This document shows, piece by piece, positions 47,501 to 50,500 of a stretch of 64,000 nt of DNA (position 1 is its first letter; each line of letters opens with the position of its first letter). The DNA lies in NCBI RefSeq assembly GCF_056712565.1, contig NZ_CM160072.1; one strand, 5' to 3'. Position numbers: made by a program.

Positions 47501-50500
47501 CGCTGGGGGTGATTGGCGTGATTTATGAAGCGCGCCCGAACGTGACGGTTGATGTTGCTTCCCTGTGCCTGAAAACCGGTAACGCGGTGATCCTGCGCGG
47601 CGGCAAAGAAACCTGTCGCACTAACGCTGCAACGGTAGCGGTGATTCAGGACGCCCTGAAATCCTGCGGCTTACCGGCGGGTGCCGTGCAGGCAATTGAT
47701 AATCCTGACCGTGCGCTGGTCAGTGAAATGCTGCGTATGGATAAATACATCGACATGCTGATCCCGCGCGGTGGGGCTGGTTTGCATAAACTGTGCCGCG
47801 AGCAGTCGACAATCCCGGTGATCACAGGCGGTATAGGCGTATGCCATATTTACGTTGATGAAAGTGCAGAGATCGCTGAAGCCCTGAAAGTAATTGTCAA
47901 CGCGAAAACTCAGCGACCGAGCACATGTAATACGGTAGAAACGTTGCTGGTAAATAAAAACATCGCAGATAGCTTCCTGCCCGCATTAAGCAAACAAATG
48001 GCGGAAAGCGGCGTGACGTTACACGCTGATGCAGCCGCGCTGGCGCAGTTGCAGGCAGGCCCCGCGAAGGTGGTGGCTGTTAAAGCCGAAGAGTATGACG
48101 ATGAGTTTCTGTCATTAGATTTGAACGTCAAAATCGTTAGCGATCTGGATGACGCCATTGCCCATATTCGTGAACACGGCACGCAACACTCCGATGCGAT
48201 CCTGACCCGCGATATGCGCAACGCCCAGCGTTTTGTTAACGAAGTGGATTCCTCCGCTGTTTACGTTAACGCCTCTACGCGTTTTACCGACGGCGGCCAG
48301 TTTGGTCTGGGGGCGGAAGTTGCGGTAAGCACACAAAAACTCCACGCGCGCGGCCCAATGGGGCTGGAAGCTCTGACCACTTACAAGTGGATCGGCATTG
48401 GTGATTACACCATTCGTGCGTAAATAAAACCGGGTGATGCAAAAGTAGCCATTTGATTCACAAGGCCATTGACGCATCGCCCGGTTAGTTTTAACCTTGT
48501 CCACCGTGATTCACGTTCGTGAACATGTCCTTTCAGGGCCGATATAGCTCAGTTGGTAGAGCAGCGCATTCGTAATGCGAAGGTCGTAGGTTCGACTCCT
48601 ATTATCGGCACCATCAAGAAAATCAATAACTTAGCTTAACTTCTCTAAGAAATTGTATCTTCTGTTATCACTTACAAACGCCTATACGTTGTTATGGGCT
48701 TTGGTAGTTTAACACGTATGGGCGAGTAGTTCCCAGGCTCAACCTCGTAACAAGTTCCTTTGAAGCTGGAAGACGTGCCACCGTCTCTAAACCTTCTACC
48801 AAAACTCTTAGCAAGATGTTCCACACCTGGCGCGGTGTCCAATGATGCTACACGTCGTGAGACGTTGCAGAGGATAAACAGGCTAAATGATGGGAAGAGT
48901 TTTAAGTGCAATAGTGGATTAAAGCCCACCTCTTCAAAACCTAACTTGATCGGGAAAGAATCAAGCTCTAGCACGGTTTCGTCCACCGGAGTACAACGGG
49001 TGCCTGATAAGAGAAGAACTGCTAAGACTTCATAGCTTTTGTGAAAAAGCCCTTTTTAGTGGATACGCCTACGGCGCTTATTTTTTGGTATAACCATCAA
49101 AGGCGCTTTATGGCTCCTATTGTCTTGAAAATGTATCTTTACTTGTATTGTGTTTTATGCGTAGTCTCCCTGTGTAGTATGTAACTTGTTAATTTTCATA
49201 TGAATACAGAGGCAACACGATGAAAAACATTGCAGCTATAAAACGTAATAACCGCAAGATTCACGCTCGTAAGTTCCTGTCTACGCCAGAGGGAAAAGCC
49301 TGGCTAGAGCGAAAGCAACGAGAGAACGAAGAAAGAAAACTCCTTAGTGAGTTGAAATGGCTTAGAGAGGATTTCTGAAAATCTCCAGAACGCAACAAGA
49401 CGCATTCTAACGCTGTTTTCATTGCTTGGTATAGGGATGTATATGTGATGTGTGTTTAATGCGTCTGTGAGCTTGTTTTGTGCCTTATTTTGCATTTTCA
49501 TAATGCAGAAGAGAACACGGAAAACCTTAAAATTAATTATTGGGGTATTTAAGGCTATTTTAAGGGGATTTAAGGGTATTAAACTTGATTTAATTGATTA
49601 AAATATAAACAGATAGCTCTGCATCTTATTGATTTATAAGGTTATTTTTGAATAAAGGTAAATAAAAAATAAATAGCCATAAATAGCTATAAATAGCTAT
49701 AAATACATCTAAATACATATGAATCCCCTCCCTTATGGCTAGATTGCGAGAGGTGCTTAACGCGATTTTTAGCGCCCCCCGATCTGGAAAATCCAGAATC
49801 CCCAAATATCAAGGAGGCATTACGCCTCCTCTTCTTCCTTCTTAATTCGCTGTACCGTTGAAGGAGCAACATTAAAGCTCTCGGCGGTTTTACGCACTGA
49901 CACGCCAGCGGAAAGGGCTTTCTTTATACCTTCCCTATCTACTGCCTTCCCTTTACCACGCTTTGTAGGATTGACGGCTTGCGCTTCTCGTTTACGCTCT
50001 AACATCAGTTCACGTTCACACGTTGCAACTGCCGACAACATCGTAAGCATCATCTTTCCCATCGCGCTTGTAATGTCAGCAATGATTCCTTCTTTGTGAA
50101 ATCGAACAATTACACCTCGATTATTAAGTTGTTCCACTAAGGCAAGAATGTCTAAGGTGTTACGCCCTAAACGATCAAGAGAGTGGACGTGTAAGGTGTC
50201 GCCTTCTCTCAGATAGGATAAACACGCCTGCAATCCTGGACGGTTAGTGTCTTTACCTGACAGCTTATCTTCAAAGACTTTATCAAGCGTTACTCCTGCA
50301 AGCTGGCGATCAGTGTTCTGATCTACAGTGCTCACACGCTTATAACCGATATTGCTCATAAAATCCTCTTAATGTATCGATTTGGCACTACTTCAATGCA
50401 AATGAGTATATCGTATTCATTTGGTCTGTTTCAAGCCTTATAGGTACGGAATATTACACGATTTAGATGTATTCATTTGGTATGCCTAATGGATACACAG

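Follow-up and report, generated by a model that had tools for sequence, protein, structure and literature searches.

The large ornate RNAs GOLLD and ROOL are several hundred nucleotides (nt) long, contain many covarying helices and pseudoknots, and are carried by phages and prophages near tRNA genes; neither is known to have an experimentally shown function. The CI RNA of P4 is a processed molecule of ~70 nt that acts by antisense-induced termination, and the P4 immunity leader starts a short operon. In plasmids of the ColE1/pMB1 type, which encode no initiator, a long multi-helix RNA (RNA II) adjoins or overlaps the origin, and in the pB1067-type 'marine' plasmid family both replication and incompatibility are governed by conserved RNAs, according to Le Roux et al. 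(2011; PMC3035462). In this report, we analyse the region directly downstream of the tRNA gene thrW in a stretch of 64,000 nt from contig NZ_CM160072.1 (assembly GCF_056712565.1; the window, meaning this stretch at its full length), in which proA is followed by thrW and then by a 12.7-kb insert. Comparison of related sequences indicates that positions ~48,665-49,125, in the same orientation as thrW (+ strand), encode a conserved, highly structured non-coding RNA of ~430-460 nt, the transcription of which we infer. We suggest, with somewhat better than even confidence, that this RNA is the RNA-primed replication origin module of the inserted element, analogous to ColE1 RNA II and not homologous to it.

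Each of the described systems resembles the thrW locus in part. The ColE1/pMB1 arrangement of a long RNA at the origin of plasmids encoding no initiator recurs in the plasmid relatives described below, some of which have a ColE1-like bom/oriT adjoining the RNA and which show signals for a short antisense transcript over its 5' end, and the hosts in both cases are Enterobacterales. Unlike RNA II, however, the RNA has a different fold and belongs to an element that integrates at tRNA genes and has genes for a tyrosine integrase and a capsid protein, and its integrated copies show no antisense promoter. With the pB1067 family, likened here by description only, it would share RNA-governed plasmid replication, whereas the hosts of that family are marine bacteria. 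Size, covarying helices, pseudoknots, carriage by a mobile element and the vicinity of a tRNA gene are all reminiscent of GOLLD and ROOL, but no Rfam model matches the RNA, its proximity to a tRNA arises from integration into a host tRNA gene, and its plasmid homologues suggest a role in replication. Like the P4 immunity leader, it is a structured untranslated RNA that heads a short operon, with small open reading frames (ORFs) after it, in a small satellite-like integrative element; in contrast to the CI RNA, to which it shows no homology, it is six times larger and is common to plasmids.

The region is widely distributed, occurring in 570 of 5426 complete Escherichia coli genomes (~10%), and the conservation in related elements that the initial annotation of this DNA had proposed as a check was found: diverged copies, 70-94% identical, occupy the same place in the same orientation. 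About 170 loci emerged when viral, genome and metagenome collections were scanned by pattern, and filtering left 51 representatives at 97% identity; the ten matches from the genome collection came from named Enterobacterales of several genera, except for two metagenome-assembled genomes labelled Bacillota. In integrative elements the RNA always immediately follows a tRNA, or the 3' fragment of one (the insertion sites being tRNA-Thr, tRNA-Leu and tRNA-Gly). These elements form a family, ~12-13 kb in length and equipped with a lambda-E-type capsid gene, in which the RNA lies at the end away from the integrase. A thrW element and a tRNA-Leu element are 92% identical in this region, which is also found in plasmids without an integrase. 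Family-wide, the RNA is still ~70% identical in elements whose capsid proteins share less than 30%, and it is the most conserved part of the element family.

The region is non-coding. The two overlapping ORFs listed in the initial annotation, one of 104 amino acids (aa) at 48672-48986 on the minus strand that starts with GTG and one of 91 aa at 48760-49035 on the plus strand that starts with TTG, are both present, as is the moderate GC content reported there (0.44-0.45 over 48500-49099), and its judgment that neither ORF is convincing was borne out, as neither is conserved. A protein homologue that would speak for coding was looked for, and neither ORF had a match in Pfam, while PHROGs gave one weak match (E 0.018). 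Even among copies 98% identical the stop-free stretch is unstable, falling from 127 codons in the window to 77 and 56 in two others (L013 and L002). No codon periodicity was detected in the region, and substitutions relative to five relatives are spread evenly over the three phases (p 0.34-0.95); the adjacent gene for a 52-aa protein (orf52), used as a positive control, gave 18/9/162 substitutions by codon position (p ~1e-51). No gene is annotated in the interval in strains GPEC548 and E2865 or in any of the 40 E. coli records listed.

Compensatory change supports a defined fold. RNAalifold, applied to 19 representatives, predicted 53 pairs, 24 of which showed compensatory double changes, and thirteen helices, including two pseudoknots, were then curated from a scan of column pairs (Table 1). 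In the curated fold, 92.9% of alignment cells were paired, compared with 35-40% when the 3' partners were slid by 1-3 columns, and changes on both sides were seen in 41 of the 68 pairs, compared with 4-11 in the slid controls; for four of five measures, none of 500 shuffles reached the observed value. Across 165 sequences, the stem of helix P9 takes eight different forms, all of them fully paired, while its loop, CG(G/C)GAAAGA, is near-invariant. The counts made on the curated fold understate the support, because P1-P4 of the most divergent member (L003) were misaligned by MAFFT; read from its sequence, these helices are kept with quite different strands (GCGG/CCGC, GCCU/AGGC and GAUGGCA/UGUCAUC). 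The pairing also carries information on the strand: G.U cells outnumber A.C cells by 78 to 26, and the GNRA-type loops (GUGA, GCGA and GAAA) are correct on the plus strand only, which together argue for a plus-strand RNA. Thus, the earlier suggestion that the region may encode a small RNA holds as to the likely product and not as to its size, since the predicted multi-helix molecule of ~430-460 nt reaches beyond the hairpin and T-run.

Table 1. Positions in the window of the predicted RNA, its helices and the neighbouring features
Feature	Position	Strand	Basis or remark
thrW, tRNA-Thr(CGT)	48538..48613	+	ARAGORN and Rfam tRNA match
attL copy of the att repeat	48595-48613		last 19 nt of thrW
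P0, spacer hairpin/inverted repeat CTTAG-N10-CTAAG	48630..48649		between tRNA and RNA; read from sequence and alignments
RNA 5' domain (predicted)	48665..48805	+	covariation counts, inverted repeat; start +/- ~30 nt
P1	48681-88/48715-22	+	5' domain
P2, pseudoknot helix	48700-06/48797-803	+	5' domain
P3	48723-26/48744-47	+	5' domain
P4	48772-75/48782-85	+	5' domain
RNA core domain (predicted)	48806..49027	+	closed by long-range P5
P5, long-range	48806-13/49020-27	+	closes core
P6	48823-27/48834-38	+	core
P7, GUGA loop	48852-56/48861-65	+	core
Invariant block AUAAACAGGC	from 48874	+	core
P8	48879-82/49003-06	+	core
Optional hairpin	48891-48935	+	core
P9, loop CGGGAAAGA	48945-50/48960-65	+	core
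P10a/P10b pseudoknot	48974-77/48985-88 and 48981-84/48998-49001	+	core
RNA 3' tail (predicted)	49028..49125	+	P11, P12, U-run, distal hairpin
P11, GUGA loop	49036-40/49045-49	+	3' tail
P12, hairpin of the initial annotation	49066-69/49073-76	+	3' tail
U-run	49081-86	+	3' tail
Distal conserved hairpin, UAUGG-type motif	to ~49121	+	3' tail
orf52, 52-aa Arg/Lys-rich protein (KRNNRKIHARKFLSTPEGKAWL...)	49220..49378	+	tblastn synteny, codon-position substitutions
Tyrosine integrase gene	59919-61253	-	far end of element
Element far end	61239..61358	+	promoter-like site and attR repeat (61340-61358)

The optional hairpin of the core, 45 nt in length (GAAGAG...GUGG-AUUAAAGC-CCAC...CUCUUC), is present in the window and in the L003 and L004 clades and absent from all others, and is a variable expansion segment of the RNA. 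In the spacer that separates the tRNA from the RNA, the arms of P0 differ in other clades yet remain complementary when the alignments are read (AGAGA/TCTCT); P0 might serve as an operator or, on either strand, as a weak terminator. The 3' tail is a candidate for the primer end, the origin or an attenuator. It includes the terminator-like hairpin of the initial annotation, CGCC and GGCG arms around TAC with a T-run (CTTATTTTTT) that ends at 49086, which is present and corresponds to P12. Four stem pairs fall short of the rule of our terminator scan (at least five), so P12 of the window was not called and, taken alone, is no better than chance. In relatives, however, the hairpin is kept with compensatory changes (GCC/GGC vs CGC/GCG), whereas the quality of the following tract varies by clade, L002 having a longer stem with CUUUUCUU and L015 the tract CUCUCCUU. 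The hairpin is therefore conserved and its terminator quality is not; as the conserved sequence runs on for ~40 nt after the T-run and some clades (e.g. L015) have a poor U-tract, we retain the hairpin and give little weight to its reading as a terminator.

No described RNA family accounts for the region. The Rfam scan proposed in the initial annotation returned, with Rfam 15, the tRNA only, and the RNA interval, its divergent homologues and the plasmids were all without a match; at E<=10 over 48600-49250 nothing fell on the conserved RNA, and a hit to SNORA22 at 49085-49222 (E 1.1) is noise. The phage database held no homologue, and searches of the literature by text and by sequence string found no description of the RNA.

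The evidence for a function comes from small plasmids. The lead was a divergent metagenomic homologue (L138) that has a MobC gene as its neighbour and no tRNA in its vicinity, and whose sequence matches small plasmids. Enterobacterales plasmids of 1.7-3.7 kb share a core made up of the block GGAUAAACAGGC, P5, P8, P9, a P10-type hairpin and ACCUGAUAA; most also have the P12 hairpin (GUCGCU.CGCUCC), and those of Enterobacteriaceae alone have the distal CCCACCACGGGGG motif. These plasmids add new compensatory variants, for example CCUUGAA/UUCAAGG or UUGAUUG/CAAUCAA in P5 and UUAAC/GUUAA in P9. A profile of the element family matched them (E 6e-18 to 1e-5) along only the 3' half of the model, the homology extending from the invariant block and P5 through the distal hairpin. 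The matches include a 2,683-bp qnrD plasmid typed Col3M, and the core is carried by 340 plasmid records. The two smallest plasmids, of 1718 and 1696 bp, have in common only the ~430-bp RNA region and a further 145 bp, and Pfam revealed no Rep domain in the ORFs of the tiny plasmids, which measure 1.7-2.7 kb. On the minus strand of the 1718-bp plasmid (AP024701.1, L176), a promoter-like site with an extended -10 was detected at 437-409, and a hairpin with a U-run lies, by eye, at ~357-321; the two signals are arranged as one would expect of a countertranscript to the 5' end of the plus-strand RNA. Just upstream of the RNA, at nt 61-260, the plasmid carries a ColE1-like bom/oriT (CAGTCACGTAGCGCTAGCGGAGTGTATACTGGCTTA) and a pas-like sequence, both recognised by resemblance to pBR322. 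The 1696-bp relative has neither sequence and is non-mobilizable; mobilizable plasmids are numerous among the relatives. Stable maintenance in DH10B is on record for the small qnrD plasmids (PMC3913671), and according to one paper their replication is "not yet characterized".

Because the structured RNA region is the only conserved region of plasmids that have no recognisable initiator, it is most simply their replicon, and by homology to it the RNA of the window is most likely an RNA-primed origin module. We propose that the RNA would be transcribed through the origin and fold into a defined multi-helix shape, and that its 3' part, from P12 and the U-run to the UAUGG region, would hybridise to the template. 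Host RNase H would then process the hybrid into a primer for extension by DNA polymerase I, and replication primed in this way would allow the excised element to persist as a plasmid. In the integrated state, transcription might occur by read-through from the thrW promoter. In the excised circle, a promoter-like sequence at 61239-61266 (TTGATT-16-GATAAT, a consensus match only), which is directed across the attR repeat, may read across attP into the RNA, and the product of orf52 may serve as an accessory factor.

Several observations weigh against a priming function. The element has its own O-like initiator and iteron field, which could be the actual origin; only the 3' half of the RNA is common to the plasmids, and the absence of Rep from the tiny plasmids rests on absent Pfam matches. 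The fold was derived from the same alignment that was used for counting, the aligned sequences represent only ~5-7 independent clades, and the single-sequence folding energy is unremarkable (z -0.35); thermodynamic stability was dropped as a line of evidence, since z-scores of -0.35 and -0.16 are uninformative. Homology to RNA II, which we had suspected from local resemblances (CCAGGGGGAAACGCCTGG and GGGTTTCGCCACC), was rejected on two-way profile searches: the nhmmer profile of the family did not match pMB1 or four ColE1-like origins, and the ColE1 profile gave no relevant match in the window, the related loci or the tiny plasmids. RNA I (RF00106) was not found in the window, the homologues or the plasmids, and no antisense promoter was found in the window or in L002. 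Finally, no sigma-70-like promoter was detected between thrW and the RNA, a lack that makes read-through from thrW plausible.

Four other explanations were weighed. The RNA may act in trans, possibly as a ribonucleoprotein with the 52-aa protein, and control the life cycle (immunity, maintenance or exploitation of a helper phage) without any priming. This we consider unlikely, even though RNA and orf52 are conserved together at the same end of most integrative elements examined, the protein is rich in Arg and Lys and weakly resembles the rRNA-binding protein bL34 (E ~0.9, not significant), and the element has a separate initiator and iterons while its integrated copies are without an antisense control region; the core is nevertheless the only conserved region of tiny plasmids that have no orf52 and must replicate, and the L004 clade keeps the RNA without orf52. 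A cis-regulatory leader of orf52, attenuator- or riboswitch-like and acting through P12 and the U-run, would match the order of RNA, hairpin with U-run and small ORF, as well as the failure of both a promoter scan and inspection by eye to find a convincing separate promoter for orf52. Thirteen helices and two pseudoknots, however, far exceed known leaders, and the RNA persists without orf52 in L004, with a different Lys-rich ORF in its place in L003, and in plasmids lacking any such gene; conservation also passes beyond the U-tract, which is poor in the L015 clade, and we rate a leader as improbable, distinctly more so than an RNA acting in trans. The plasmid homologues thus weaken both explanations, as does the clade that has no orf52.

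Slightly less probable again is that the structure acts as single-stranded DNA, for example as a complementary-strand priming signal of the ssi or sso type. Covarying hairpins would be expected there too, and the mobilizable relatives would suit such a signal; but the threefold excess of G.U over A.C and the GNRA and GAAA loops point to RNA, the non-mobilizable 1696-bp plasmid retains the region, and a lagging-strand signal alone cannot be the replicon of a Rep-less plasmid. The initial annotation had also raised the possibility that the region is the att-proximal regulatory arm. That it is only the P' arm of attP, with sites for integrase or host factors, or else a functionless decayed coding sequence, has been largely refuted, and we give this very little credence. 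The region does abut attL, and the motif TGTATCTT flanks it at 48654 and 49132, yet it is conserved across different integrases, different tRNA targets and plasmids without an integrase, with its core common to the small plasmids, and long-range compensatory pairs combined with the lack of a codon signal or protein homologue speak against both versions. Strand-specific pairing and integrase-independent conservation therefore weaken the single-stranded DNA and att-arm explanations alike. As an integrase arm site in its own right, TGTATCTT was rejected, its four occurrences against 1.7 expected being reached by 8 of 100 shuffles.

Beyond the favoured RNA-primed origin, a wider proposal may be put forward more tentatively, as a possibility that we do not yet think probable. 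The RNA may represent a new RNA-only class of replicon, unrelated to ColE1, that replicates hundreds of small Enterobacterales plasmids without a recognisable Rep, including those with qnrD, and that has also been built into a tRNA-integrating, capsid-encoding mini-element, where replication would be tied to the integrated or excised state through host transcription of the tRNA or through a promoter crossing attP.

The gene orf52 usually follows the RNA and is missing from the plasmids. The core of its product, KRNNRKIHARKFL(A/S)TPEGKAWL, is nearly invariant; its homologues form 57 clusters, every one of which, where it bears a taxon name, is from Enterobacteriaceae, and no Pfam family was found for it. 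We also noted that positions 49,336-49,357, in the 3' part of orf52, are 86% complementary to 52,728-52,749, where the first gene of the main operon has its ribosome-binding region (score 29, compared with a shuffle maximum of 23). An antisense pairing between the two was considered and rejected, as it is found in the window and is not conserved in four other clades; the complementarity is probably due to chance or specific to the lineage.

Copies of the 19-nt tRNA 3'-end repeat bound the insert on both sides (Table 1). Its genes encode a small serine recombinase, an O-like winged-helix initiator (53176-53829), a lambda-E-type major capsid protein, a tape-measure-like protein of 609 aa, a Dit-like protein and the integrase; no terminase or portal was recognised among the element proteins. 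A segment of 2.4 kb without an annotated gene contains arrays of direct repeats at ~50,940-51,530 and at 49,530-49,710, with seven copies of ACCCCCACAGAATTCTGTTA, units of the GGGGTAGGTCATAGTGAACTA type, ACCTAGGAA units and three copies of ATAAATAGCT; from their sequence, the arrays look like an iteron-type origin or a partition region for the O-like protein. The insert may represent a phage satellite or mini-phage of a new kind. Its identification with the Sakai prophages Sp1/Sp2, described as degraded lambdoid and P4-like, was considered and dropped, as the descriptions alone gave no link, and the same holds for CP-933H, which was compared by description only and for which mentions in the literature gave no link. 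We also considered whether metagenome contigs of ~13 kb might be free linear or circular genomes; those checked that have the RNA within ~450 nt of an end start in a chromosomal tRNA or flank, and L071, L073 and L075 end just past an attR-like repeat and are therefore integrated copies.

Further observations concern the arrangement and variation of these elements. Directly after attR (61,359-64,000) lies a second island with a P4-type integrase gene starting at ~61,513 (VKLNARQIDTAKPKEKAYKLADGGGLYLLV...), so that islands stand in tandem at the thrW site; strain GPEC548 has an identical element without the second island. At many loci (L002, from E. coli MS6193, 6385-8350; L008, L009, L012, L035, L043 and L053), only the last ~45 nt of tRNA-Thr precede the RNA, and these are themselves preceded by sequence that is not tRNA; the segment of att identity is thus ~45 nt there, compared with 19 nt in the window. 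An integrase pseudogene lies just upstream of the RNA in L002, and a Dit-like match ~7 kb upstream in L012, and the truncated tRNA-Thr loci with such remnants upstream suggest tandem arrays of elements. The RNA gene is mosaic: in comparison with the L002 and L015 clades, some copies (L094, L118, L076 and L098) join a 5' domain typical of one clade to P5 strands and a 3' tail typical of another; both strands of P5 have been exchanged together, which suggests recombination within the gene. The copy on metagenome contig L077 has an intact block A (oriented position 5474), while its P9 loop and CCUGAUAA block are destroyed, and it has apparently decayed. Among the plasmids, a 12,132-bp Klebsiella pneumoniae record (NZ_CP141860.1, L187) is a head-to-tail dimer of a 6,066-bp unit that carries the RNA core, a serine recombinase and MerR/HTH genes and has no recognisable Rep. 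A special link between the serine recombinase of the element and this plasmid resolvase was considered and dropped, as the two are only 38% identical.

An RNA of ~430 nt and thirteen helices, present in about one-tenth of complete E. coli genomes and in hundreds of small plasmids, has thus gone unannotated and is absent from Rfam. If it is indeed an RNA-primed origin, it would explain the replication of small resistance plasmids of the qnrD/Col3M type, and it would provide a typing marker for plasmids left untyped by current schemes. A segment of ~450 bp should then confer autonomous replication. A plasmid-type RNA origin would also lie inside an integrative element with phage capsid and tail genes, which would blur the boundary between plasmid, satellite and prophage.

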